A DNA stretch of 26,325 nt, from IMG/VR virus record IMGVR_UViG_2648501669_000017, one strand, 5' to 3'. Of this stretch, positions 804 through 23,703 are shown one piece after another. Source of the stretch: a virus (taxonomy: Duplodnaviria > Heunggongvirae > Uroviricota > Caudoviricetes). The notes under the pieces were generated by a model that was not told the DNA's origin, searched no databases, and saw only the letters and a program-made list of their open reading frames with translations. Position 1 is the stretch's first letter; the number at the start of each line of letters is the position of its first letter. Both the position numbers and the translations under genes were made by a program.

Positions 804-1141
804 TTTTTATGTGAGCAGAAGATATTCATCAGAAACGATTATGTAAATCATTTTATTTTGCCAACGGCCTCATTGTCGAAAGAAAAGAATACGCCCGTAT
901 TTCCTGAATGGATTGACTTTTTTATCCAACCACACTTCAGCGCACTGCGTTTAAAAAATGCCTCATTCTTATGCGGAATATCATCATTTCATCATGATGT
1001 CTTTGATGAGCGGTGAACACAATACACTTGCGCTGTCTCTTCAGGATGAATCCCCTGGTCTGGTGCCTGTGGGCTGATGTTGCAGCAAAGCTAAGGTCGC
1101 TTAAACGCTACTCAGTATTCACTTTTCAGAGGATGAAATTT

Positions 1142-4100
1142 ATGAACAGGACCAGTCCCTATTATTGTCGCCGCTCAGTACTTTCCTTATTGATATCTGC
1201 CTTGATATATGCCCCGCCCGGGATGGCTGCCTTCACTACTAATGTTATTGGTGTGGTAAACGATGAGACTGTAGATGGCAACCAAAAAGTGGATGAACGA
1301 GGTACAACAAATAACACTCATATTATCAACCATGGCCAGCAGAATGTTCATGGCGGGGTATCTAATGGAAGTCTTATTGAATCTGGTGGATATCAAGATA
1401 TAGGAAGTCATAACAATTTTGTGGGGCAGGCTAATAATACAACCATTAACGGTGGCAGACAGTCAATTCATGACGGGGGTATTTCCACAGGTACGACAAT
1501 CGAGAGTGGCAATCAGGACGTTTATAAAGGGGGTATCAGCAATGGAACGACAATTAAGGGCGGTGCTTCACGCGTAGAGGGAGGGAGTGCGAATGGAATA
1601 CTCATTGATGGTGGTAGCCAGATAGTAAAAGTTCAAGGGCATGCTGATGGTACAACGATAAATAAGTCTGGCTCTCAGGACGTAGTACAAGGAAGTCTGG
1701 CAACGAACACAACCATAAATGGTGGTCGACAGTATGTTGAACAGAGCACAGTAGAAACAACAACCATTAAAAATGGCGGTGAGCAAAGAGTATATGAGAG
1801 CCGTGCGCTGGACACGACGATTGAAGGCGGAACTCAGTCTCTGAATAGTAAGTCAACGGCAAAAAATACGCATATCTATTCTGGTGGCACGCAAATTGTT
1901 GATAACACCAGCACCTCGGATGTTATTGAAGTTTATTCTGGTGGCGTGCTTGATGTTAGTGGTGGTACGGCAACAAATGTTACCCAGCACGATGGTGCAA
2001 TTTTAAAAACTAACACTAACGGTACGACGGTGAGCGGTACGAATAGTGAAGGTGCATTCTCCATCCACAATCACGTGGCAGACAATGTGTTGCTGGAAAA
2101 CGGTGGTCATTTAGACATAAACGCATATGGTTCGGCAAACAAGACGATTATTAAAGATAAAGGAACAATGTCAGTTTTAACCAATGCTAAAGCTGATGCG
2201 ACCCGAATAGATAATGGCGGGGTTATGGATGTTGCAGGAAACGCGACAAATACCATAATTAATGGTGGCACACAGAATATTAATAATTATGGCATAGCCA
2301 CAGGCACCAATATCAACAGCGGAACGCAAAATATCAAAAGCGGCGGGAAAGCTGACACAACAATTATATCCTCCGGGAGCCGGCAGGTTGTTGAGAAAGA
2401 TGGTACGGCAATTGGCAGCAATATTAGCGCCGGAGGCTCGCTGATTGTCTATACCGGCGGTATTGCACATGGGGTTAACCAGGAGACGGGCAGTGCTTTA
2501 GTTGCCAACACGGGTGCAGGGACTGATATCGAAGGATACAACAAGCTCTCTCACTTCACTATTACCGGAGGGGAGGCTAATTATGTTGTGCTGGAAAATA
2601 CCGGCGAACTGACGGTAGTGGCTAAAACCTCGGCGAAAAATACTACCATTGATACTGGCGGTAAGCTGATTGTCCAGAAGGAGGCTAAAACAGATAGCAC
2701 CAGACTTAATAATGGCGGCGTTCTGGAGGTTCAGGACGGTGGTGAGGCTAAGCATGTTGAGCAACAATCCGGCGGCGCATTAATTGCTTCCACGACCTCC
2801 GGAACACTTATCGAAGGAACCAACAGTTATGGTGATGCTTTCTACATCAGGAATTCAGAAGCTAAAAATGTAGTGCTGGAAAACGCTGGCTCATTAACAG
2901 TCGTCACTGGTTCCCGCGCAGTTGACACGATTATTAATGCCAACGGCAAAATGGATGTTTATGGAAAAGATGTTGGCACTGTACTCAATAGTGCTGGCAC
3001 CCAAACAATATATGCCAGTGCCACTTCTGATAAAGCAAATATCAAAGGTGGCAAGCAAACGGTATATGGTTTAGCCACTGAAGCAAATATCGAAAGTGGT
3101 GAACAAATTGTTGATGGTGGGTCAACAGAGAAAACACACATCAATGGTGGCACGCAAACCGTTCAGAATTATGGTAAGGCAATCAATACCGATATCGTCT
3201 CTGGCCTACAACAAATTATGGCAAACGGGACAGCGGAAGGTTCCATTATTAATGGGGGTTCACAGGTAGTTAATGAGGGCGGTCTGGCTGAAAACTCGGT
3301 GCTTAATGACGGCGGCACACTCGATGTGCGGGAGAAAGGCAGCGCAACGGGGATACAGCAGAGTAGCCAGGGCGCTTTGGTTGCAACCACCAGGGCGACG
3401 CGGGTCACAGGAACACGCGCGGATGGCGTCGCGTTCAGCATCGAGCAGGGTGCGGCGAACAATATCCTGCTGGCAAATGGCGGCGTGTTAACCGTGGAGT
3501 CAGACACCTCTTCTGACAAAACACAGGTCAATATGGGCGGACGGGAGATCGTCAAAACAAAAGCCACTGCGACAGGCACGACGCTCACCGGCGGTGAACA
3601 AATTGTCGAGGGTGTGGCGAATGAGACAACAATTAACGACGGCGGAATACAAACAGTTTCAGCTAACGGAGAGGCAATAAAAACAAAGATCAATGAAGGC
3701 GGTACGCTGACAGTCAACGATAATGGCAAAGCGACAGATATCGTCCAGAACAGCGGTGCCGCTCTCCAGACGAGCACGGCTAACGGTATTGAAATCAGCG
3801 GTACTCACCAGTACGGTACTTTTTCCATTTCCGGCAATTTAGCGACCAATATGTTGCTGGAAAATGGCGGTAATTTATTGGTATTAGCAGGTACCGAAGC
3901 TCGCGACTCCACGGTTGGCAAGGGTGGGGCAATGCAAAACCTGGGTCAGGACTCCGCCACAAAGGTTAACTCTGGCGGGCAATATACCCTTGGGCGGTCA
4001 AAAGATGAGTTTCAGGCTCTGGCCCGGGCAGAAGATCTCCAGGTCGCTGGCGGTACGGCAATCGTCTACGCAGGTACGCTGGCGGATGCATCGGTCAGTG

Positions 4101-5722
4101 GCGCGACAGGAAGCCTGTCGTTAATGACGCCACGGGATAATGTTACGCCAGTTAAACTCGAAGGGGCGGTCCGGATTACCGATAGCGCGACATTGACTCT
4201 GGGAAATGGCGTCGATACCACGCTTGCCGACCTGACGGCTGCCAGCCGGGGCAGTGTCTGGCTTAACAGCAATAATTCCTGTGCAGGTACCAGCAACTGC
4301 GAATATAGAGTAAACAGTTTGCTACTCAACGACGGTGATGTTTATTTGTCAGCACAAACAGCAGCGCCTGCCACAACTAACGGTATCTACAATACGCTGA
4401 CAACCAATGAACTTTCCGGTAGCGGTAATTTCTACCTGCATACCAACGTTGCAGGCTCCCGGGGCGATCAACTGGTCGTCAACAACAACGCCACTGGTAA
4501 TTTTAAAATCTTTGTTCAGGATACCGGCGTCAGCCCACAGTCTGACGACGCGATGACGCTGGTGAAAACAGGGGGAGGGGATGCTTCGTTTACGCTGGGC
4601 AATACCGGCGGTTTCGTTGATCTTGGGACCTATGAGTATGTCCTGAAAAGTGACGGCAACAGCAACTGGAACCTGACCAATGATGTCAAACCCAACCCGG
4701 ACCCCATCCCAAATCCAAAGCCAGACCCAAAACCCGATCCAAAGCCAGACCCAAATCCAAAACCAGACCCTACTCCCGATCCAACGCCGACACCCGTTCC
4801 GGAGAAACGCATTACGCCTTCTACGGCAGCCGTACTCAATATGGCAGCAACATTACCGTTGGTATTTGATGCTGAGCTAAACAGTATTCGCGAGCGGTTG
4901 AACATAATGAAAGCGAGTCCACACAACAATAATGTCTGGGGGGCGACGTATAACACCCGTAATAATGTCACCACCGATGCGGGTGCCGGGTTTGAGCAGA
5001 CGCTGACCGGAATGACAGTGGGGATCGACAGCCGTAATGATATTCCTGAAGGAATTACCACGCTAGGCGCTTTTATGGGCTATTCCCATTCACATATCGG
5101 TTTTGATCGCGGAGGACATGGCAGTGTGGGCAGTTATTCTCTGGGCGGCTATGCCAGTTGGGAACATGAAAGTGGTTTCTATCTGGACGGTGTCGTGAAG
5201 CTGAACCGTTTTAAAAGTAACGTAGCAGGTAAAATGAGCAGCGGTGGAGCCGCCAATGGCAGTTACCACAGCAACGGGCTGGGCGGTCACATTGAAACCG
5301 GGATGCGATTTACCGATGGTAACTGGAACCTGACGCCGTATGCATCGTTAACGGGGTTCACCGCTGATAACCCCGAATATCATTTATCCAATGGCATGAA
5401 ATCGAAATCAGTCGATACCCGCAGTATATATCGTGAACTGGGCGCAACGCTGAGTTACAACATGCGTCTGGGGAACGGTATGGAAGTTGAGCCGTGGCTG
5501 AAGGCGGCTGTGCGCAAAGAATTTGTCGATGATAACCGGGTGAAAGTGAATAGTGACGGTAATTTCGTCAATTATTTGTCGGGCAGACGTGGAATATACC
5601 AGGCAGGTATTAAAGCCTCATTCAGCAGTACGTTAAGCGGGCATCTTGGGGTGGGGTATAGCCATAGTGCCGGTGTGGAATCCCCGTGGAACGCGGTAGC
5701 TGGTGTGAACTGGTCGTTCTGA
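1142..5722 (+). CDS. ypjA: Adhesin-like autotransporter (type Va): signal peptide, long repetitive beta-helical passenger domain, Pro-rich linker, C-terminal beta-barrel translocator
   Basis: ORF 1013-5722; ATG at 1142 sits 9 nt after AGAGGA and gives MNRTSPYYCRRSVLSLLISALIYAPPGMAAF (signal-peptide-like), total 1526 aa; iterative ~19-aa GG-x-Q/T-rich passenger repeats; PNPKPDPKPDP linker; C-terminal aromatic-rich barrel ending ...NWSF. Symbol assigned from length plus the adjacent invertase remnant and ssrA-att context, as recalled for E. coli K-12 ypjA. Confidence 0.8.
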   Translation: MNRTSPYYCRRSVLSLLISALIYAPPGMAAFTTNVIGVVNDETVDGNQKVDERGTTNNTHIINHGQQNVHGGVSNGSLIESGGYQDIGSHNNFVGQANNTTINGGRQSIHDGGISTGTTIESGNQDVYKGGISNGTTIKGGASRVEGGSANGILIDGGSQIVKVQGHADGTTINKSGSQDVVQGSLATNTTINGGRQYVEQSTVETTTIKNGGEQRVYESRALDTTIEGGTQSLNSKSTAKNTHIYSGGTQIVDNTSTSDVIEVYSGGVLDVSGGTATNVTQHDGAILKTNTNGTTVSGTNSEGAFSIHNHVADNVLLENGGHLDINAYGSANKTIIKDKGTMSVLTNAKADATRIDNGGVMDVAGNATNTIINGGTQNINNYGIATGTNINSGTQNIKSGGKADTTIISSGSRQVVEKDGTAIGSNISAGGSLIVYTGGIAHGVNQETGSALVANTGAGTDIEGYNKLSHFTITGGEANYVVLENTGELTVVAKTSAKNTTIDTGGKLIVQKEAKTDSTRLNNGGVLEVQDGGEAKHVEQQSGGALIASTTSGTLIEGTNSYGDAFYIRNSEAKNVVLENAGSLTVVTGSRAVDTIINANGKMDVYGKDVGTVLNSAGTQTIYASATSDKANIKGGKQTVYGLATEANIESGEQIVDGGSTEKTHINGGTQTVQNYGKAINTDIVSGLQQIMANGTAEGSIINGGSQVVNEGGLAENSVLNDGGTLDVREKGSATGIQQSSQGALVATTRATRVTGTRADGVAFSIEQGAANNILLANGGVLTVESDTSSDKTQVNMGGREIVKTKATATGTTLTGGEQIVEGVANETTINDGGIQTVSANGEAIKTKINEGGTLTVNDNGKATDIVQNSGAALQTSTANGIEISGTHQYGTFSISGNLATNMLLENGGNLLVLAGTEARDSTVGKGGAMQNLGQDSATKVNSGGQYTLGRSKDEFQALARAEDLQVAGGTAIVYAGTLADASVSGATGSLSLMTPRDNVTPVKLEGAVRITDSATLTLGNGVDTTLADLTAASRGSVWLNSNNSCAGTSNCEYRVNSLLLNDGDVYLSAQTAAPATTNGIYNTLTTNELSGSGNFYLHTNVAGSRGDQLVVNNNATGNFKIFVQDTGVSPQSDDAMTLVKTGGGDASFTLGNTGGFVDLGTYEYVLKSDGNSNWNLTNDVKPNPDPIPNPKPDPKPDPKPDPNPKPDPTPDPTPTPVPEKRITPSTAAVLNMAATLPLVFDAELNSIRERLNIMKASPHNNNVWGATYNTRNNVTTDAGAGFEQTLTGMTVGIDSRNDIPEGITTLGAFMGYSHSHIGFDRGGHGSVGSYSLGGYASWEHESGFYLDGVVKLNRFKSNVAGKMSSGGAANGSYHSNGLGGHIETGMRFTDGNWNLTPYASLTGFTADNPEYHLSNGMKSKSVDTRSIYRELGATLSYNMRLGNGMEVEPWLKAAVRKEFVDDNRVKVNSDGNFVNYLSGRRGIYQAGIKASFSSTLSGHLGVGYSHSAGVESPWNAVAGVNWSF
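4687..4800 (+). repeat. Proline-rich linker encoded by an imperfect tandem DNA repeat (CCAAAGCCAGACCCAAA-type units) inside the autotransporter gene
   Basis: Direct reading: ...cccaacccggaccccatcccaaatccaaagccagacccaaaacccgatccaaagccagacccaaatccaaaaccagaccc...; protein PNPDPIPNPKPDPKPDPKPDPNPKPDPTPDPTPTPVP. Confidence 0.8.
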
Positions 5723-15798: not shown

Positions 15799-16289
15799 GC
15801 ATGAGTCTTTTGAATGACGTTCAGAAATTCATTGAAGCCCATCCGGGGTGTACTTCCGGAGACATTGCGGATGCTTTTGCAGGTTACTCACGGCAGCGCG
15901 TTCTGCAGTCTGCAAGCAAGTTACGTCAGAGTGGGCGTGTGGCTCACCGTTGTGAAGGAGATACACGCAGACATTTCCCGCGCCTGACTGAGAGAGCGCA
16001 GGAGCCGGAACCACAACCAGTTCGTGAAACCAGACCTGTGCGCAATTTCTATGTCGGCACTAACGACCCGCGGGTGATTTTGTGCCTGACCCGCCAGGCG
16101 GAAGAACTGGAGTCCAGGGGCTTATACCGTCGTGCTGCAACGGTGTGGATGGCGGCATTCCGTGAAAGCCACTCCCAGCCAGAACGAAACAATTTTCTGG
16201 CGCGTCGTGAACGGTGTTTACGGAAAAGCAGTAAGCGGGCTGCATCAGGTGAAGAGTGGTATCTCTCAGGGAATTACGTGGGGGCTTAA
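15795..16289 (+). CDS. PerC-family-like transcriptional regulator with N-terminal winged-helix region
   Basis: 164 aa; start ATG overlaps the O-like stop; segment LESRGLYRRAATVWMAAF...ERNNFLARRERC resembles the conserved core of PerC/Pch activators as I recall them (QQGLWRRAARRW...C..RR.FC). Confidence 0.5.
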   Translation: MSMSLLNDVQKFIEAHPGCTSGDIADAFAGYSRQRVLQSASKLRQSGRVAHRCEGDTRRHFPRLTERAQEPEPQPVRETRPVRNFYVGTNDPRVILCLTRQAEELESRGLYRRAATVWMAAFRESHSQPERNNFLARRERCLRKSSKRAASGEEWYLSGNYVGA

Positions 16290-16942
16290 TGAGTAATAAA
16301 TATTGCCAGGCGCTGGCGGAACTGCGGAACAAACCAGCCCATGAACTGAAGGAAGTGGGCGATCAGTGGCGCACGCCGGACAACATTTTCTGGGGAATTA
16401 ACACTCTGTTTGGCCCGTTTGTTCTGGATCTGTTTACTGACGGTGATAACGCCAAATGTGCTGCGTATTACACGGCGGAAGACAACGCGCTGGCGCATGA
16501 CTGGTCAGAACGCCTTGCGGAGCTTAAAGGTGCTGCCTTTGGTAATCCCCCATACAGCCGCGCCAGTCAGCATGAGGGGCAATACATCACCGGCATGCGT
16601 TACATCATGAAGCATGCCAGTGCCATGCGTGATAAAGGCGGGCGCTATGTTTTCCTGATCAAAGCTGCCACCAGCGAAGTGTGGTGGCCGGAAGATGCAG
16701 ATCATATTGCTTTTATTCGCGGGCGTATTGGTTTTGAACTGCCTGCCTGGTTTATCCCGAAGGATGAGAAGCAGGTGCCGACAGGCGCTTTCTTCGCTGG
16801 TGCTATTGCTGTTTTCGACAAGACCTGGAAGGGACCGGCAATCAGCTACATCGGGCGCTATGAACTTGAGGCATGTGGTGAGGCCTTTCTGGCGCAGGTT
16901 CGCCAGCAGGCAGAAAAACTGGTCAGGGAGATGGCGGCATGA
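16289..16942 (+). CDS. Phage Dam-family N6-adenine DNA methyltransferase (YfdM-type)
   Basis: Start ATG 16289 overlaps the upstream TAA (TAATG); catalytic motif FGNPPYS; conserved WRTPD and DLFTDG segments typical of the phage N-6-adenine-methyltransferase family. Confidence 0.8.
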   Translation: MSNKYCQALAELRNKPAHELKEVGDQWRTPDNIFWGINTLFGPFVLDLFTDGDNAKCAAYYTAEDNALAHDWSERLAELKGAAFGNPPYSRASQHEGQYITGMRYIMKHASAMRDKGGRYVFLIKAATSEVWWPEDADHIAFIRGRIGFELPAWFIPKDEKQVPTGAFFAGAIAVFDKTWKGPAISYIGRYELEACGEAFLAQVRQQAEKLVREMAA

Positions 16943-18482: not shown

Positions 18483-19478
18483 GTGACCGTGAGAGCACTA
18501 CTGACCCCTGAAATTGCCCCGCGTATGGGGATCGTATTGTTCAGACCAGGTTCAGAGCTGATGCCCCTGTTTATGCAGGGGCGTGTCCTGCTGGAGCCTG
18601 AGCCGGAACGTTATTCATCTTTCGCCAGTGGTGCTGTTCCGGCGGCATCACAACCGCTGGTGGATGATCCTGCCGTTCGGGCCGTGTTCCGCAATGAGGC
18701 AGTGATCCGTCGTGCTGGTGGCGTGGAATGTCTTGAAAGCTGGTTACTTTGTGAAAAAGGCTGCCAGTGGCCTCATTCCGACTGGCACAGCGAGAACATG
18801 ACCACAATGCGACACGCTCCGGGCGCAATCCGTCTGTGCTGGCACTGCGATAACCAGCTGCGCGATCAGTTCACGGAACGGCTGGAATCAATGGCAACGG
18901 ATAACTGTGCCCGCTGGGTGTTGTCTGTTGTGCGTCGGGATCTCGGTTTTGATGACAGTCACGTTGTGACAATGCCGGAACTGTGCTGGTGGCTGATTCG
19001 TAATGACCTGGCGGATGCCTTACCGGAAAGTGCAGCCCGTAAGGCACTGAGATTACCGAAGCCTGTTGTGCCGTCTGTCACCCGGGAAAGTGACCTTGTG
19101 CCTTCGGTTCCTGCCACCAGCATCATCCAGGATAAGGCGAAAAAGGTGCTGGCGCTGAAAGTGGATCCGGAGTCGCCGGAGTCTTTTATGTTACGCCCAA
19201 AACGTCGCCGCTGGGTTAATGAAAAGTACACGCGCTGGGTTAAGACACAGCCGTGTGCATGTTGTGGAAAGCCCGCTGATGATCCCCACCACCTGATAGG
19301 CCACGGTCAAGGGGGAATGGGTACAAAAGCGCATGACCTCTTTGTGTTGCCTTTGTGCAGAAAGCATCACGACGAGCTGCATGCGGATACCGTGGCATTT
19401 GAAGAGAAGTATGGCTCCCAGCTGGAGCTGATATTTCGTTTTATCGATCGTGCGCTGGCAATTGGCGTGCTGGCCTGA
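18483..19478 (+). CDS. DUF968-type phage protein with C-terminal Cys/His-rich (zinc-finger/HNH-like) motif
   Basis: GTG start (18483 or 18489); C-terminal ...[49 protein letters not shown] pattern as recalled for DUF968 proteins in the nin regions of lambdoid prophages. Confidence 0.65.
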
Positions 19479-19495
19479 TTTTGTGGAGGAAGTTG

Positions 19496-19867
19496 ATGCG
19501 TGATATTCAAATGGTTCTTGAACGTTGGGGGGCATGGGCGGCTAATAATCATGAGGATGTGACCTGGTCGTCCATTGCTGCCGGTTTTAAGGGATTACTT
19601 CCTTCAAAAGTAAAATCCCGTCCGCAATGTTGTGACGATGACGCGATGATCATTTGCGGGTGCATGGCCCGTCTGAAAAAGAACAACAGCGATTTGCACG
19701 ATTTATTAGTAGATTATTATGTAGGTGGTATGACGTTTATGGCGCTTGCCCGTAAACATGGGCGTTCTGATTGCTGGGTTGGGCGCTTATTGCAAAAGGC
19801 AGAAGGCATCATTGAAGGTATGTTGATAATGTTAGAAATAGAATTGGAAATGGACTCAAATATCTAG
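19496..19867 (+). CDS. Q: Late-gene antiterminator Q (QuuD / phage-82-type Q family)
   Basis: ATG 19496 with GGAGGA 5 nt upstream (track start 19481 is TTG); [34 protein letters not shown]...[17 protein letters not shown] matches my recollection of DLP12 QuuD; sits just before the late region. Confidence 0.8.
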
Positions 19868-19994
19868 AAAGATATTTTATGAGTATCTGGATTTTTAATT
19901 TGTATTGTTAGCATGAAATTAAGGAGGGTGGACTGTTTGTGCTTTATATTAATGTTTTTGTGGGGATTTAATAACCACTGATTTATTTGAGGGT

Positions 19995-20029
19995 GGCGCT
20001 AATGTACAAGGTTTTTAGTAATTAGCGCC
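19995..20029. terminator. 9-bp inverted repeat GGCGCTAAT...ATTAGCGCC (17-nt loop) with a downstream T-rich tract on the plus strand: candidate tR'-type late terminator and/or terminator of the minus-strand gene 20040-21491
   Basis: Direct reading; located between the Q stop and the 3' end of the convergent ATPase gene. Confidence 0.4.
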
Positions 20030-20039
20030 TGCTGGTTTG

Positions 20040-21491
20040 TTATTTTATTTTGCTTACTATATTTGTAATAAGTGGGTCAAATTTCTCATCAATAATTTCA
20101 ATATATTTTTTTATTGCTAAAGTTCTAATTACTTCCTCCTCACATTCTGCTTCTTTAGCAATTGCTTGAGTGTAATTGTGATGATCACTAATCCCTTCCT
20201 TTTTTATTAACCAATCAAAATCAATATGATACTCCTTGTAGAGGAATTTTTTTACTTCCTCATGTTGAAATACTTCTACTTCTGGTGGCCTATTGCCAGG
20301 GAAAGAAAATAAATCATCTTTAATGTTTTCTCCAACATCTGCATCTCTTACGGCAATAACATTAAGGCCTGCTTTCTTGAATACCTCGACTGCTTGTCGG
20401 ACTGCATCTTTATCTCCAATATCAGTGATTTGAATGGATTTAAGAATGTCTCTCCGCTTTGCTCTAATTACTTCACTAAGTAAAACTTTTGCAAACTGGT
20501 CTTCTACGCAAATATGCAGCCCTTTAAACTGCCCATCAGACAGTATTGATCTCACATGAGTTGTTGAAATTCCATCTTTGATATAGACACCAGTCTGATC
20601 TCTAATAAGTAATTTTCGTGCATCAGGAGGTAAAGCATTTAATATCACACTTGAGTGTGTTGATAATATTATTTGATGTTTTCTACGTTGACATACTTCC
20701 ATTAAATATTTTGCAAATTCATACTGTGCGCTTTCATGAAGAGATGTTTCTGGTTCTTCTAGTACGAAAAGACTTTGCTCTGGAGCTGTTTCAAGCATAT
20801 CAACCGTATAAAGAACTCTTCCTTCGCCAAACCCCATGTTATTTTCAGAATAAGAATACCCAAGTCTTTCAACAATACCAATTTCTGAACGACGTGCTCT
20901 ATGAGAAATTCCTTGGAATGCGATATCATCATATGGATGACCTATTATTTTTGCCATCTTCAATATTACTGAATGGTCGACGCTTCTTCTCTCTGTTAAA
21001 TCAAAGTCTTTACCGCCATAAACACTTATATCTCTACGTTCTACTTTTGGAATATAGACAGTAAAACCAATGTAAAAACAGTGTCTTTCTGGTTGTCTTT
21101 TATATCCAGACCAAGAAGACTTTATGCGAGTGACAGTCACATCTTGTGTTTTCGTTGAATCATTTGTTTCATATTTATAAATGACACTGGCGTCATTATC
21201 GAAAGGGGCTGGATCGGCTTTAGATACAGGGAAAAAATCTTTAATATATAATCTCTTATATTCACGGGCTGTAACTGGTTTTTTATATGCGCATATTGCT
21301 AACTGCCCAAGAGTGCTTTTCCCAGCGCCGTTTAGCCCTGATATTGCAGTTACCGGAAAATTTATATTTAATGTTAGTTTTTTTATTCCTCGAAATCCAT
21401 TTATCTCTAGACTTTTAATTACGGAGCCAAAGTTTGAGTATCTATTTTTATCAAAGTACATGCATTTTAGTATATTTTTTATGTCTGACAT
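20040..21491 (-). CDS. OLD-family-like ATPase-nuclease: N-terminal ABC-type ATPase + C-terminal TOPRIM-like domain (candidate anti-phage defence protein)
   Basis: 483 aa; ATG 21491 with AGGAAAG 8 nt upstream; Walker A GLNGAGKST (aa 52-60), signature-like SENNMGFGEG (aa 214-223), Walker B LFVLEEPE (aa 241-248), H-loop LSTHS (aa 276-280); TOPRIM-like acidic motifs HICVEDQ (E330) and IAVRDADVGEN (D383/D385); visibly AT-rich; transcribed against the late operon. Confidence 0.75.
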   Translation of the reverse strand: MSDIKNILKCMYFDKNRYSNFGSVIKSLEINGFRGIKKLTLNINFPVTAISGLNGAGKSTLGQLAICAYKKPVTAREYKRLYIKDFFPVSKADPAPFDNDASVIYKYETNDSTKTQDVTVTRIKSSWSGYKRQPERHCFYIGFTVYIPKVERRDISVYGGKDFDLTERRSVDHSVILKMAKIIGHPYDDIAFQGISHRARRSEIGIVERLGYSYSENNMGFGEGRVLYTVDMLETAPEQSLFVLEEPETSLHESAQYEFAKYLMEVCQRRKHQIILSTHSSVILNALPPDARKLLIRDQTGVYIKDGISTTHVRSILSDGQFKGLHICVEDQFAKVLLSEVIRAKRRDILKSIQITDIGDKDAVRQAVEVFKKAGLNVIAVRDADVGENIKDDLFSFPGNRPPEVEVFQHEEVKKFLYKEYHIDFDWLIKKEGISDHHNYTQAIAKEAECEEEVIRTLAIKKYIEIIDEKFDPLITNIVSKIK

Positions 21492-21755
21492 TTTTTATCT
21501 TTCCTGATATGAATGAGAGTTATCTTTAGAAAAACAATAAATTTATAACATTTAGAGATGTATTCATCAATGATTGGGTAAATATCGTGCATTTGTTGTT
21601 TTAAAATCAACCAAGAATGATTTTTATAATTATGTCAATTGCCTTATTATCAATATGGTAATGTTTTCTCAATCTAATTATTGGGGGGAATATATTATTT
21701 ACAATCGTAAATAATCAGATATGCTCTCAAGAGTGGTTACTTCGCCACACAACTT

Positions 21756-21781
21756 AAACCCGCCGTCGAGCGGGTTTTTTT
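21756..21781 (+). terminator. Rho-independent terminator (plus strand) in the AT-rich region upstream of the small wHTH gene
   Basis: AAACCCGC-cgtcga-GCGGGTTT followed by T-run (tttttttg). Confidence 0.6.
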
Positions 21782-21903
21782 GTACCTGTAAACCTGGTGC
21801 AGTACGGTAAACACGCTGGTGGTCGTGAATACTGACTTTTTATCTTGCTGGCTTTTTAGACAAGAGTTATTGGTATGTCATGTTAACCAGAAGGAAAAAA
21901 GAC

Positions 21904-22098
21904 ATGCTAAAACAGCAAGATATGACAGAAACGGCGAAAGTTGTTTTTAATGAATTAAGCATCGAACCGGCAACAGTCGGGGAGATTGCACAAAACACAT
22001 ATCTTTCACGCGAACGCTGTCAGTTAATACTGACCCAGTTGGTTATGGCGGGGCTGGCAGATTACCAGTTCGGCTGTTACAGACGCCTTCAGCAATGA
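21904..22098 (+). CDS. Small winged-helix DNA-binding-like protein (hypothetical)
   Basis: ORF 21880-22098; the ATG at 21904 follows AGGAAAAAAG; ...ATVGEIAQNTYLSRERCQLILTQLVMAGL resembles a wHTH recognition helix + wing. Confidence 0.45.
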   Translation: MLKQQDMTETAKVVFNELSIEPATVGEIAQNTYLSRERCQLILTQLVMAGLADYQFGCYRRLQQ

Positions 22099-22124
22099 AG
22101 GACTTTTAATTTGTGAAAATGGGC

Positions 22125-22155
22125 GGCTGGTGGGTGTTGGTAGCACCTGCCAGCC
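22125..22155 (+). other. 12-bp stem RNA hairpin (two G-U pairs) upstream of the methyltransferase gene; no U-tract
   Basis: GGCTGGTGGGTG-ttggtag-CACCTGCCAGCC read directly. Confidence 0.4.
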
Positions 22156-22247
22156 ATTCGCTCATGCTTACTGGTCACAAGCGAACCACGGCCCACTGCT
22201 TTAGCGCAAAAGCATAGTGAGCCTACCAGAGTTACGCTTACTGATCC

Positions 22248-23300
22248 ATGAAAAATACTGTAAAAATAAACAGTGTTGATTTAATCAACGCTGATTGCCT
22301 GCATTTTATTCAGTCCCTGCCTGATGATTCCATTGACCTGATTGTTACCGATCCGCCTTACTTCAAGGTGAAACCCAACGGTTGGGACAATCAGTGGAAA
22401 GGGGACGAAGATTACCTTAAGTGGCTGGACCACTGTCTGGCCCAGTTCTGGCGGGTGTTGAAACCTGCCGGAAGCCTTTACCTGTTCTGTGGGCATCGCC
22501 TGGCATCTGATATTGAGATCATGATGCGTGAACGTTTCAACGTGCTTAACCATATCATCTGGGCGAAGCCGTCCGGACGTTGGAATGGGTGTAATAAAGA
22601 AAGTCTGCGCGCATATTTTCCTGCCACAGAGCGCGTTCTGTTTGCTGAACATTACCAGGGGCCATATCGCGGCAAAAGTGACGACTATGCGGCAAAAGAA
22701 AGGGAACTCAAACAGCACATAATGGCACCGCTGATATCGTATTTCAGGGATGCTCGTGCCGAACTGGGTATAACGGCAAAACAAATTGCCGAAGCCACAG
22801 ATAAGAAAAATATGGTTTCCCACTGGTTTGGTGCCAGTCAGTGGCAGTTGCCGAATGAGGCTGACTATCGGAAGTTACAGGCACTGTTTTCCCGTATAGC
22901 GGCAGAGAAGTTTCAGGAACAACAACTGGAACAACCACACCACCAGCTGGTGGCATCTTATGATTCACTGAATCGCAAATATTCTGAATTGCTGGATGAG
23001 TTTAAATCTCTCCGGCGCTATTTCTCCGTATCAGTCTCTGTGCCTTATACCGATGTCTGGACGCATAAGCCCGTTCAGTTCTACCCGGGTAAACATCCGT
23101 GCGAGAAACCGGCGGATATGCTCCGGCAAATAATCAATGCCAGTAGTCGACCTGGTGATCTGGTTGCTGATTTCTTTATGGGATCCGGTTCCACAATAAA
23201 AGCAGCAATGGCGCTGGGGCGTCGGGCGTTAGGTGTTGAACTTGAGTCAGAGCGGTTTAATCAGACGGTGAAAGAGGTAAGTGAACTGGTGGGGAAATAA
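22248..23300 (+). CDS. Orphan DNA methyltransferase, beta-class (motif IV DPPY N-terminal, motif I FxGxG C-terminal); N6-adenine or N4-cytosine specific
   Basis: 350 aa; IVTDPPYF (aa 32-39) and ADFFMGSGST (aa ~308-317); central insertion with an HTH-like segment (ITAKQIAEATD); no adjacent restriction endonuclease recognisable. Confidence 0.85.
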   Translation: MKNTVKINSVDLINADCLHFIQSLPDDSIDLIVTDPPYFKVKPNGWDNQWKGDEDYLKWLDHCLAQFWRVLKPAGSLYLFCGHRLASDIEIMMRERFNVLNHIIWAKPSGRWNGCNKESLRAYFPATERVLFAEHYQGPYRGKSDDYAAKERELKQHIMAPLISYFRDARAELGITAKQIAEATDKKNMVSHWFGASQWQLPNEADYRKLQALFSRIAAEKFQEQQLEQPHHQLVASYDSLNRKYSELLDEFKSLRRYFSVSVSVPYTDVWTHKPVQFYPGKHPCEKPADMLRQIINASSRPGDLVADFFMGSGSTIKAAMALGRRALGVELESERFNQTVKEVSELVGK

Positions 23301-23307
23301 TTCTGGT

Positions 23308-23330
23308 GGCCACGTTGCGTGGCCTTTTTA
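23308..23330 (+). terminator. Rho-independent terminator after the methyltransferase gene, upstream of the lysis cassette
   Basis: GGCCACG-ttg-CGTGGCC followed by TTTTTA. Confidence 0.6.
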
Positions 23331-23376
23331 TTTCCAACACAGCACCCGCAAATATCGCGAGGTGAGAGATGACGAA

Positions 23377-23703
23377 ATGCCTCATAACCCAAATACCTGG
23401 CTGGAGTTGGTACAGAGCTGGTGGCGTGGAGACACACCACTGGGCGCAGTAATTATGTCGATCGTTATGGCTGGTTTACGTATTGCCTATTTTGGTGGCG
23501 GTGGCGGCTGGAAGCGAAAAACGCTCGAGATTTTGCTCTGTGGCGCTCTGACACTGACCTTTGCATCCGCGCTTGAGTATGTCGGATGGCCTAAATCACT
23601 TTCTGTTGCTATTGGTGGTGGGGTGGGGCTGATCGGGGTCGATGCTATTCGTGGTGCGGCAATGAGAGTAATCGGTAACAAGTTTGGTAGCTCGAAGGAG
23701 TAA
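23377..23703 (+). CDS. Putative holin (about 3 TM helices), not lambda-S-like
   Basis: Sits immediately before endolysin R with 3-nt spacing; hydrophobic helices LGAVIMSIVMAGLRIAYF, LEILLCGALTLTFASALEYVGW, SVAIGGGVGLIGVDAI; charged C-terminus; start ambiguous (ATG 23377 or GTG 23362). Confidence 0.55.
   Translation: MPHNPNTWLELVQSWWRGDTPLGAVIMSIVMAGLRIAYFGGGGGWKRKTLEILLCGALTLTFASALEYVGWPKSLSVAIGGGVGLIGVDAIRGAAMRVIGNKFGSSKE

Follow-up and report, generated by a model that had tools for sequence, protein, structure and literature searches.

A conserved structured leader RNA before an M.EcoGII-type methyltransferase gene in a lambdoid prophage late operon

Introduction

How is a toxic DNA methyltransferase without a partner nuclease kept in check by the prophage that carries it, and what might it do for the phage? 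M.EcoGII, from a prophage of E. coli O104:H4 C227-11, is sequence-non-specific, toxic under constitutive expression and unexpressed in its own lysogen, in which neither it nor M.EcoGI leaves any methylation; as to its regulation, the original paper noted only this silence and the toxicity on expression (Murray et al. 2018, PMC5778455). We analyzed a related locus in a viral sequence of 26,325 nucleotides (IMG/VR record IMGVR_UViG_2648501669_000017), referred to in full as the window, for which a first-pass annotation had proposed an orphan beta-class methyltransferase preceded by a small winged helix-turn-helix (wHTH) gene.

Identity of the methyltransferase

The window encodes two adenine methyltransferases, as the first-pass annotation had stated:

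22248–23300, + strand: M.EcoGII-family beta-class N6-adenine DNA methyltransferase, 350 aa (PF01555; identity to M.EcoGII)
16256–16942, + strand: Dam-like phage N6-adenine methyltransferase, the second in the prophage, in the early or nin region (TIGR01712)

The latter matches TIGR01712 (phage_N6A_met) above the family cutoff, with E = 9.7e-76. The former, hereafter the methylase, aligns with Pfam PF01555 (N6_N4_Mtase) over residues 29–341 (E = 1.1e-42), and its score of 147 bits against a cutoff of 26.7 places it in that family. The DPPY motif occupies residues 35–38 (nt 22350–22361) and the F-x-G-x-G motif, here FMGSG, residues 310–314 (nt 23175–23189); motif IV thus precedes motif I with the recognition domain in the center, which is the beta-class order. 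Compared with M.EcoGII (sequence from the PMC11551740 supplement, with a few OCR errors), 281 of 349 residues are identical (81%, with 90% similarity and 2 gaps), the recognition domain included. The central region aligns to the target-recognition domain of M.EcoGII, which forms a four-helix bundle with a helix-turn-helix in an AlphaFold model (PMC11551740). The orphan beta-class enzyme with an N-terminal DPPY, a C-terminal FxGxG and a central HTH domain is therefore confirmed, as is the lack of a cognate nuclease beside it: neither the open reading frames nor Pfam revealed an endonuclease gene adjoining the methylase at the locus, which is thus not of the Type II restriction–modification kind.

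Being encoded by a phage or prophage, with no partner nuclease, is also what characterizes the M.EcoGII cluster, and the methylase lies in a lambdoid late region. The methylases of SfV (orf48), cdtI and PhiR40_1 are 98% identical to that of the window, and the methylase module is present in about a quarter of the complete E. coli genomes (1383 of 5426). Judged by its sequence, the enzyme is an ordinary member of the known M.EcoGII cluster and not a new one. It is predicted to act as a beta-class dimer on the N6 of adenine, with practically no dependence on sequence context, the divergence of about 19% of residues leaving another specificity possible in principle. Reconstructed ancestors across the whole cluster retain non-specific methylation of both DNA and RNA, and the closest site-specific relative is only 27% identical (PMC11551740).

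The late-operon setting

Several features delimit the transcription unit in which the methylase gene lies:

19481–19867, + strand: Q antiterminator of the QuuD type, upstream boundary of the late operon (Pfam PF06530, 1.8e-51)
21698–21725, + strand: putative late promoter pR' (TTTACA, 16 nt, TATGCT; consensus scan)
21756–21785, + strand: intrinsic, tR'-like terminator (8-bp GC-rich stem plus T-run)
23308–23334, + strand: terminator-like hairpin between the methylase and holin genes (7-bp stem with 6 GC pairs, plus T-run)
23377–23703, + strand: lambda-family holin S, first gene of the lysis cassette and downstream boundary (PF05106, 5.7e-25)

The genes that lambdoid and Stx phages carry between pR'/tR' and S are Q-dependent. 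In near-identical E. coli genomes, the Q gene of this locus is annotated as an antiterminator Q family protein, and the holin start at 23377 was taken from the RefSeq annotation of a homologous locus; lysozyme and Rz genes lie near the methylase along with the holin. The assignment of pR' is an inference from a weak consensus match and homology boundaries: homology with other QuuD-type loci begins exactly at the putative site, and loci carrying other Q alleles have a different spacer sequence. The strong tR'-like terminator, which Q-modified polymerase would have to pass, is kept in all six aligned loci (6/6), and terminators are annotated in phage SfV at the positions homologous to both 21756–21785 and 23308–23334.

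The order Q, terminator, (small ORF), methylase, terminator, holin is shared by SfV, cdtI, PhiR40_1, mEp460, Morganella phage IME1369_02 and N15, and in one Stx2a phage the methylase lies upstream of tRNAs and stx2AB. Among related methylase loci, a Q homologue precedes the gene on the same strand in at least 62 of 83, and lysis genes follow it in at least 58 of 85, both counts being lower bounds. Since the methylase gene sits between Q and the lysis genes, behind a terminator, its expression is expected only late in lytic growth. A literature search on induction-dependent expression of M.EcoGII-type genes returned nothing relevant.

A conserved leader RNA upstream of the methylase

The interval directly 5' of the methylase contains the following elements, all on the + strand:

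22112–22247: conserved structured 5' leader RNA of the methylase gene, 136 nt (nhmmer, covariance model R1, covariation)
22119–22124 with 22160–22165: helix P1
22120–22124 with 22191–22195: helix P1', alternative to P1
22125–22136 with 22144–22155: hairpin P2
22157–22166 with 22176–22185: helix H23
22190–22223: domain C hairpin
22179–22183 with 22235–22239: helix P4
22173–22177 with 22242–22247: helix P3, ending 1 nt before the AUG

Leader identity is 63–88% across the compared loci, except for two Serratia-type loci (50–57%), and the synonymous sites of the methylase differ by 0.6–0.9 in the same comparison. The leader is far better conserved than the synonymous sites of both flanking genes, which are saturated, and as strongly as the non-synonymous sites of the protein. 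Matches were obtained with nhmmer in 68 of 88 loci, and a search of 87 related loci with the covariance model R1 gave matches in 72, N15 and Vibrio among them; each of these has a single R1 match, directly upstream of the methylase and ending at its start codon. The 15 loci without an R1 match mostly encode enzymes of 51–62% identity, from Vibrio, Aliivibrio and some Proteus and Morganella. Among viral contigs, every methylase-adjacent copy of the leader (98/98) precedes the gene with the usual spacing, and in the 16 copies that lack the methylase the match to the RNA model is absent or internally deleted.

A structured RNA in this 150-nt intergenic gap is absent from the first-pass annotation. 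Rfam 15 gave nothing overlapping 22112–22247 at E ≤ 1 in the window and nothing at E ≤ 0.1 in the N15, Proteus, Serratia and Vibrio loci, there are no tRNAs, and the sequence was not found in the literature searched; the leader is apparently an undescribed RNA. Identification with known prophage RNAs was rejected, as the AgvB/AsxR and Pas sRNAs differ from it in size, strand and place. A small peptide gene was also discarded, as the conserved AUG at 22119 opens anything from 3 to more than 43 codons, in shifting frames; this AUG owes its conservation to its place in a helix.

An initial RNAalifold run on a MAFFT alignment yielded 15 pairs only, and the structure was instead built up from folds computed independently for single sequences, each pair then being tested individually. 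Of the alignment cells, 89.5% are paired, compared with 26–46% when controls are slid, and double changes occur in 26 of the 41 pairs, with compensatory base-pair changes extending from Escherichia to Proteus, Serratia, Vibrio and phage N15. The two folds of the leader are still 78% and 86% paired in an unfitted MAFFT alignment. The minimum-energy fold is predicted at −56.9 kcal/mol (z = −3.6). Conserved structure, compensatory changes and a fixed position before the methylase together mark the element as a cis-regulatory leader.

At its 3' end, helices P3 and P4 would pair with the roughly 20 nt that precede the methylase start codon. P3 is a 5-bp helix that stops just before the AUG, which is itself unpaired; positions −18 to −2 are predicted to be unpaired with a mean probability of only 0.36, and the start codon lacks a good Shine–Dalgarno sequence. 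Because P3 and P4 cover the pre-start bases where no good Shine–Dalgarno sequence is available, folding of the leader would hold translation of the methylase down and may also switch it. We read the leader as a translation-gating RNA, possibly a switch, with two mutually exclusive folds that both find support.

The second of these folds, a three-way junction of P1', P2 and H23, is 86.3% paired, with double changes in 14 of 30 pairs. H23 is mutually exclusive with P1 and P4, and both sets covary; the H23 pair 22159–22183 occurs as four pair types (CG 25, UA 11, AU 10, UG 8), the junction nucleotides are nearly invariant, and only 4.3 kcal/mol separate the two folds in the window sequence. These properties would fit a ligand- or factor-responsive, riboswitch-like leader, in which the 5' three-way junction is the sensor and the strand 22176–22185 leaves P4, thereby freeing the ribosome-binding region. 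However, the ligand or factor is a postulate with no Rfam riboswitch match to guide it, the alternative helices are explained equally well by folding intermediates or a pseudoknot (P3 with the H23 loop), and much of the P4 covariation amounts to a single clade-level change, so that we consider such a sensor rather unlikely. Equally tentative is the broader idea that the leader represents a new class of conformational RNA switch, combining a three-way-junction sensor with start-hiding helices so that the toxic, non-specific methylase is made in one particular state only, and triggered by a small-molecule ligand, by the small upstream protein, or by feedback through the methylase's known capacity to modify RNA adenines.

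The small upstream gene

Two further features on the + strand precede the leader:

21904–22098, + strand: small 64-aa gene (SfV orf47 homologue, phrog_331), provisionally winged-helix-like (dN/dS; phrog_331 match)
22086–22111, + strand: hairpin plus U-rich tract, weakly terminator-like, overlapping the stop codon of the small ORF and directly 5' of the leader (consensus scan)

The small ORF is a real gene and not a chance frame, because its dN/dS against homologues in other genera is 0.05–0.16, with dS saturated; its product matches phrog_331 (5.9e-35). An in-frame ATG at 21880 would extend the protein to 72 aa. Of the earlier wHTH assignment, the gene itself and a wHTH-like pattern, L..L...GL.....G.Y..L, hold, but the profile matches stay below threshold, with Pfam DprA_WH at 17.2 bits (cutoff 22.9) and TrmB at 16.4 bits (cutoff 25.6). 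The AF2 model, with a moderate mean pLDDT of 65.7, has four helices and no strands, and a Foldseek search of the PDB with it gave nothing significant, the best hits being LexA and Z-alpha at E > 2. Conservation is highest in the predicted third helix, RCQLILTQLVMAGL, which is kept in all alleles, including those of Morganellaceae. We provisionally regard the protein as winged-helix-like. There is no Xre/HTH_3 match in Pfam at E ≤ 0.01, no match in NCBIfam or PADLOC, and no zinc-finger pattern, only two cysteines being conserved.

Could this protein regulate the methylase, either as a transcriptional controller resembling the C proteins or, in the manner of Mu Com, by binding the leader and opening the translation start? 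The gene adjoins the methylase on its upstream side and shares its orientation in 51 of 85 genome loci and 104 of 114 viral contigs, its end invariably lying some 150 nt ahead of the methylase, and both its strong purifying selection and the conservation of its third helix also speak for such a role. A remote homologue, gp51, was found in N15 by iterated profile, plain tblastn having found none there. Against a regulatory role, 34 of 85 related loci show no small gene; leader and methylase occur unchanged without it, with Q itself or protease-like, Bro-N or other genes in the upstream place; small-gene alleles only about 50% identical adjoin methylases 98% identical to that of the window and near-identical leaders; and the absence of an Xre-type HTH, a zinc-finger pattern and a nuclease gene, together with a fold that is neither confidently predicted nor significantly matched by Foldseek, also counts against it. 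A regulatory role is accordingly doubtful in our estimation, and the controller-like function suggested in the first-pass annotation is not confirmed; the small gene is a frequent but dispensable companion of the methylase, not a classical controller protein. As for the hairpin that overlaps its stop codon, Enterobacteriaceae loci, but not those of Morganellaceae, carry a hairpin of different stem sequence at the same position, including loci that lack the small ORF.

Proposed mechanism and remaining alternatives

We consider it probable that an M.EcoGII-type enzyme, Q-dependent late transcription, leader-gated translation and anti-restriction hypermethylation belong to one account, which is predicted for this locus from sequence comparison. 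Productive transcription of the methylase would require antitermination by Q and would thus occur only after induction, and the leader probably keeps the toxic methylase off until the lytic phase; the two would form successive layers that silence the enzyme in the lysogen. Late in infection, a burst of methylase would hypermethylate the progeny phage DNA before packaging, and such DNA would, by analogy with the family, withstand Type I, II and III restriction of the adenine-sensitive kind when it enters a new host. Of the roles first suggested for the gene, shielding of the phage DNA against restriction is the most likely one. Methylation of this type would also expose the DNA to m6A-dependent Type IV nucleases, making the benefit host-dependent.

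Orphan methylases such as Dam and CcrM act as epigenetic regulators, and a sequence-specific enzyme expressed in the lysogen could likewise regulate host or prophage genes. This role, or a discrete prophage-dependent motif, is very improbable here, since the tested members and reconstructed ancestors of the M.EcoGII cluster are non-specific, M.EcoGII and M.EcoGI leave their lysogen unmethylated, and the gene lies behind terminators in the late operon. More improbable still is the possibility that the conserved 136 nt act as DNA, that is, as a recombination boundary, promoter or operator. Many E. coli matches do start exactly at 22112, which marks a module boundary at the 5' end of the leader; however, the helices are maintained by compensatory changes, the abundant G–U pairs are valid only in the + strand transcript and become C–A mismatches on the other strand, and the consensus scan found no promoter-like site within the leader.

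Upstream of the late terminator, a further gene had been suggested as a partner of the methylase:

20040–21491, − strand: ATPase–Toprim (OLD-like) candidate defence gene, variable cargo (PADLOC HEC-04; low-GC island)

It matches PADLOC HEC-04 (3.9e-47), ATPase-Toprim_I-B (2.5e-22) and AAA_15 (2.2e-19), and has the ABC-type ATPase and Toprim domains of OLD-family/HEC-04 defence candidates. The least credible reading, that methylation marks self DNA for this divergent ATPase-nuclease, about 750 bp away in the window and likewise DNA-acting, was rejected on co-occurrence and variable cargo, as, among 5426 complete E. coli genomes, 11 carry the ATPase gene and 1383 the methylase module; the ATPase gene is missing from over 99% of methylase-carrying loci, lies on the other strand in a separate island of GC 0.34–0.37, and occupies a slot that in related phages holds an OmpC porin, unrelated ORFs or nothing. 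A functional tie to the methylase is not supported, and the gene appears as one of several interchangeable cargo genes.

Relation to known systems

M.EcoGII and M.EcoGI of E. coli O104:H4 C227-11 resemble the methylase of the window in being of the same length, beta-class, prophage-encoded and devoid of a partner nuclease, whereas a late-operon place, an upstream small gene and an RNA leader are not described in that work (Murray et al. 2018, PMC5778455). The same cassette occupies the same late position in N15 (gene 52), in SfV (orf47/orf48), and for the methylases of cdtI, mEp460, phiP27 and Stx2c phages; the cargo between Q and the cassette differs among them. N15 also has the leader and the remote small-gene homologue, although its enzyme is only 56% identical. 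The annotated start of the N15 methylase lies 234 nt too late.

In phage Mu, the start of the toxic DNA-modification gene mom is held in a stem-loop that is opened by Com, a small protein encoded just upstream. Both systems have a late, toxic anti-restriction modification gene with structured RNA at its start and a small ORF ahead of it on one mRNA. However, the two are unrelated in sequence, Com is of the zinc-finger type and the 64-aa protein provisionally winged-helix-like, the leader is much larger (136 nt, multi-helix), and it stands without the small gene in many loci. Type II C proteins likewise are small DNA-binding-type proteins encoded just upstream of a modification gene, but they are Xre-type HTH proteins that time a nuclease via C-boxes, whereas this locus has no nuclease, Xre match or obligatory linkage.

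The stx genes, bor and lom are Q-dependent late-operon inserts of lambdoid phages. The methylase cassette resembles them in lying between pR'/tR' and the lysis genes and, in one Stx2a phage, on the same late transcript upstream of stx2AB; it has no recognizable promoter of its own, and in this differs from a lysogen-expressed moron. AgvB and AsxR are also non-coding RNAs from the Q-to-S region of E. coli prophages, but they are convergent sRNAs of 51–60 nt located downstream of a moron coding sequence (PMC4104026), in contrast to the 136-nt sense leader.

Significance

Chromatin and RNA mapping make wide use of M.EcoGII as a reagent, and the enzyme has been put forward as an ancestral type among the beta-class methyltransferases. 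For its silence in lysogens, the locus offers a testable account in two layers, namely Q-dependent transcription and a structured leader. The cassette is carried by about one complete E. coli genome in four, and in some Stx phages it shares a late transcript with stx2. If confirmed, the leader would represent a widespread RNA family of enterobacterial and vibrio prophages and would provide a compact element for the tight control of toxic genes.

Gene order and identity of the methyltransferase

The window represents a lambdoid prophage whose host is of the Escherichia coli type, and a 4.2-kb stretch around the methyltransferase locus is 98.6–99.3% identical to chromosomal prophages in ten complete E. 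coli genomes. The ORF map and profile scans give the following gene order.

Features around the methyltransferase locus, in window coordinates
16256-16942: second, Dam-like methyltransferase (TIGR01712, 9.7e-76)
18483-19478: DUF968 gene
19481-19867: Q antiterminator, QuuD type (PF06530, 1.8e-51)
20040-21491, minus strand: ATPase-Toprim gene, 483 aa (PADLOC HEC-04, 3.9e-47), GC island of 34-37%
21698-21725: promoter-like site (TTTACA, 16 nt, TATGCT), just upstream of the terminator
21756-21785: strong terminator; the homologous SfV site is annotated as a terminator
21904-22098, plus strand: small ORF, 64 aa
22112-22247, plus strand: leader RNA, in the gap of 149 nt (about 150) between small ORF and methyltransferase
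22248-23300, plus strand: methyltransferase, 350 aa (PF01555, 1.1e-42)
23308-23334: second terminator-like hairpin, followed in order by holin, lysozyme, Rz and bor-like genes

A very long ORF (1569 aa, plus strand, 1013-5722) occupies the left end of the window. The Dam-like enzyme named in the first-pass annotation is real, and the description given there of the locus methyltransferase as a beta-class protein is correct, with DPPY at residues 35–38 and FMGSG at residues 310–314.

The enzyme is real, but of an already known kind. It aligns over its full length with M.EcoGII at 81% identity and 90% similarity. The alignment has two gaps of one residue each, which probably stem from OCR errors in the M.EcoGII sequence used, taken from the supplementary data accompanying the SUPREM paper (PMC11551740). 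M.EcoGII, a beta-class enzyme of 349 aa, comes from an E. coli O104:H4 prophage; it modifies adenines irrespective of the surrounding sequence, its constitutive expression is toxic, and its own lysogen does not express it (PMC5778455). Its cluster comprises 158 non-redundant sequences, all from phage-derived regions; reconstructed ancestors across the cluster all retain non-specific DNA and RNA methylation, the closest site-specific enzyme is only 27% identical, and the central domain is a four-helix bundle with a helix-turn-helix (PMC11551740). Given the M.EcoGII identity and these traits, the window methyltransferase is, judged by sequence, a member of this cluster, and we infer on good grounds that the window allele would methylate adenine non-specifically. 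In phage N15, M.EcoGII-family similarity spans 2501-3589, directly after a leader RNA at 2361-2509, while gene 52 is annotated from 2735; this start is probably placed 234 nt too far downstream.

Conservation and linkage of the leader RNA

When six loci are aligned, the gap between the small gene and the methyltransferase stands out for its conservation. The leader was found by single-sequence nhmmer in 68 of 88 related loci, many of which lack the small gene, and many matches in E. coli genomes start exactly at 22112, its 5' end. Synonymous sites of the methyltransferase differ at 0.6–0.9 between loci and the leader is 63–88% identical, the sole exceptions being two Serratia-type loci (50–57%); the leader has diverged nearly to the same extent as the methyltransferase has at non-synonymous sites. 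No conserved peptide is present in the leader, no Rfam family matches it, and its sequence was not found in the literature searched.

An exact 17-mer of the leader gave 120 matches in viral contigs, none of which represents an intact leader before any gene other than the methyltransferase. The methyltransferase follows at the standard distance in 98; six lie at contig ends, and 16 have no full-length methyltransferase downstream, including one that retains only its C-terminal fragment. The RNA model recognises seven of these 16 copies, but only with a large deletion inside the element or a 3' end that is disrupted, and gives no match to the other nine. Among contigs without a full-length methyltransferase, L107, L137, L164, L178 and L193 carry partial leaders, mainly the 5' hairpin domain (77–79 nt), L157 has lost the inner hairpin, and L106 combines a disrupted 3' end with the C-terminal fragment; all of them look like scars of cassette deletion.

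Fold and covariation

Independent minimum-energy folds for Escherichia, Salmonella, Rosenbergiella, Plesiomonas, Morganella, Proteus and Serratia give one architecture. The 5' part is a long hairpin (P1, P2), whereas the 3' domain pairs GGUCA...AAGCG with CGCUU...UGAUC immediately before the AUG (P3, P4) and encloses an inner hairpin (domain C). Compensatory changes affect entire blocks: AAGCG:CGCUU in Enterobacteriaceae is replaced by GGA:UCC in Morganellaceae, and in Serratia CAC:GUG becomes CGU:ACG and GCUUU:AAAGC becomes GCUG:CAGC, and individual positions of P2 display as many as four kinds of base pair. In an unfitted MAFFT alignment, 78% of cells are paired, compared with 30–49% in slid controls.

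A search of 87 related loci with a covariance model built from P1, P2, P3, P4 and domain C gives a match in 72, exactly one per locus and always ending at the methyltransferase start; among these 72 are phage N15, three Vibrio loci and an N15-like locus from Pseudocitrobacter. In the model-fitted alignment, which favours the structure by construction but agrees in direction with the unfitted result, 89.5% of cells are paired (26–46% in slid controls), double-sided changes occur in 26 of 41 pairs (8–16), and the covariation score is 0.233 (at most 0.086). Since G-U pairs are frequent, the functional strand is the plus strand, i.e., the mRNA.

A further helix, H23 (22157-22166 with 22176-22185), also covaries strongly; its pair 22159-22183 is CG in 25 sequences, UA in 11, AU in 10 and UG in 8, and pair 22162-22180 is UA in 49 and CG in 15. 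H23 is mutually exclusive with P1 and P4, and it forms a three-way junction with P2 and a long-range helix of UGGGC (22120-22124) with GCCCA (22191-22195), which is invariant save for one compensatory double change. This junction fold pairs 86.3% of cells in the unfitted alignment (25–47% in slid controls), lies only 4.3 kcal/mol above the minimum-energy fold of the window sequence, and occupies the strand which in the other fold masks the translation start. A switch would be expected to show such a pattern; a folding pathway, or a pseudoknot of P3 with the loop of H23, would account for it equally well.

Position in the late region

The 88 related loci come from many genera. Of 83 of them, at least 62 have a Q homologue upstream on the same strand, and of 85, at least 58 have lysis genes downstream of the methyltransferase; one Stx2a phage has the order Q, small ORF, methyltransferase, tRNAs, stx2AB. 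The promoter-like site is the exact start of homology among QuuD-type loci, and its spacer varies with the Q allele. The pR'/tR' arrangement of lambda and Stx phages is well established, and by analogy the promoter-like site and terminator may be such a pair. The cassette would then be transcribed by Q-modified polymerase only, which would explain the silence of M.EcoGII-type genes in lysogens. Between terminator and small gene, 118 nt (21786-21903) are almost invariant among six phages and detectable in about 20 of the 88 loci; they may represent an operator or else another conserved untranslated element.

The small gene

The small gene is real, because its dN/dS is 0.05–0.16 with saturated dS against homologues in Kluyvera, Citrobacter, Salmonella, Enterobacter and others. 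Among the matches listed, homologues occur solely in Enterobacterales; in 51 of 85 genome loci and 104 of 114 viral contigs, one directly precedes the methyltransferase and stops about 150 nt short of it, and iterated profiles identify N15 gp51 as another. The protein shows sub-threshold matches to DprA_WH and TrmB and a classic winged-helix pattern, a conserved third helix (RCQLILTQLVMAGL) followed by a G.Y..L wing; its AF2 model is of moderate confidence only (pLDDT 65.7) and has no significant Foldseek match.

A controller-like role had been suggested for this protein and is unproven. A C protein is ruled out, as there is neither an Xre-type HTH nor a nuclease to control. Alleles about 50% identical within flanks otherwise 98% identical (cdtI, PhiR40_1), together with loci in which Q itself, a ClpP-like protease gene, a Bro-N gene or unassigned ORFs take the place of the small gene, disfavour an obligatory partnership with the methyltransferase. 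Against two related loci (L002, 3545-3772; L003, 2659-2886), the window gene is a mosaic: the first ~11 codons and the helix-3 segment are near-identical in DNA, the remainder is ~50% identical in protein, and both flanks are 92–98% identical, which suggests allelic exchange or diversifying selection limited to part of the gene.

The cassette and the ATPase gene

The cassette of small ORF and methyltransferase is present in SfV (orf47/orf48), cdtI, mEp460, PhiR40_1, phiP27, Stx2c phages and others, and in 1383 of 5426 complete E. coli genomes. The ATPase gene occurs in just 11 of the 5426, in copies at least 99.8% identical, and the slot between Q and the cassette holds it in the window, an OmpC-type porin elsewhere, two unrelated ORFs in cdtI, one ORF in PhiR40_1 and nothing in SfV, homology with other loci resuming at 21698, 21729 or 21757 according to the Q allele. 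The ATPase gene is thus independent of the methyltransferase; this distribution refutes a link between the two, and the proposed marking of self DNA by methylation for the benefit of the ATPase-nuclease finds no support. The gene itself, a single-gene, OLD-like candidate defence gene, sits in the low-GC island between Q and the late promoter/terminator on the strand opposite late transcription; the slot (19868-21697) is a cargo hotspot, since other phages carry the porin or other ORFs there.

Cassette matches reach up to eight places per genome across the E. coli collection, and E. coli MEI008 (NZ_CP074680.1) carries two copies in two prophages, so the small protein or the methyltransferase could act in trans between prophages. 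In many Stx2a phages, such as ArgO145, VT2phi_272, PA51 and PA52, only the last ~34 codons of an M.EcoGII-type gene are left (82–85% identity), annotated as DNA methyltransferase; Stx2_14040, by contrast, has the whole cassette upstream of tRNAs and stx2AB.

Proposed mechanism and role

The 3' helices of the leader cover positions -20 to -2 of the methyltransferase start, with a mean unpaired probability of 0.36, and the start codon lacks a good Shine-Dalgarno sequence. Translation may thus be RNA-limited or RNA-switched. The closest functional analogy is com-mom of phage Mu, in which the start site of a toxic late DNA-modification gene is locked in a stem-loop until a small protein, the product of the gene immediately upstream, opens it; the two systems are not homologous, and the small gene here is dispensable in many loci.

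What the analysis adds is the leader RNA, which lies inside the coordinates of the original finding and seems to be a widespread cis-regulatory RNA, so far undescribed, that is tied specifically to M.EcoGII-family genes. Late expression of the enzyme would bring a burst of non-specific adenine methylation on progeny DNA, which would protect it against adenine-sensitive restriction in the next host; of the three roles initially proposed for the methyltransferase, anti-restriction is the likely one.
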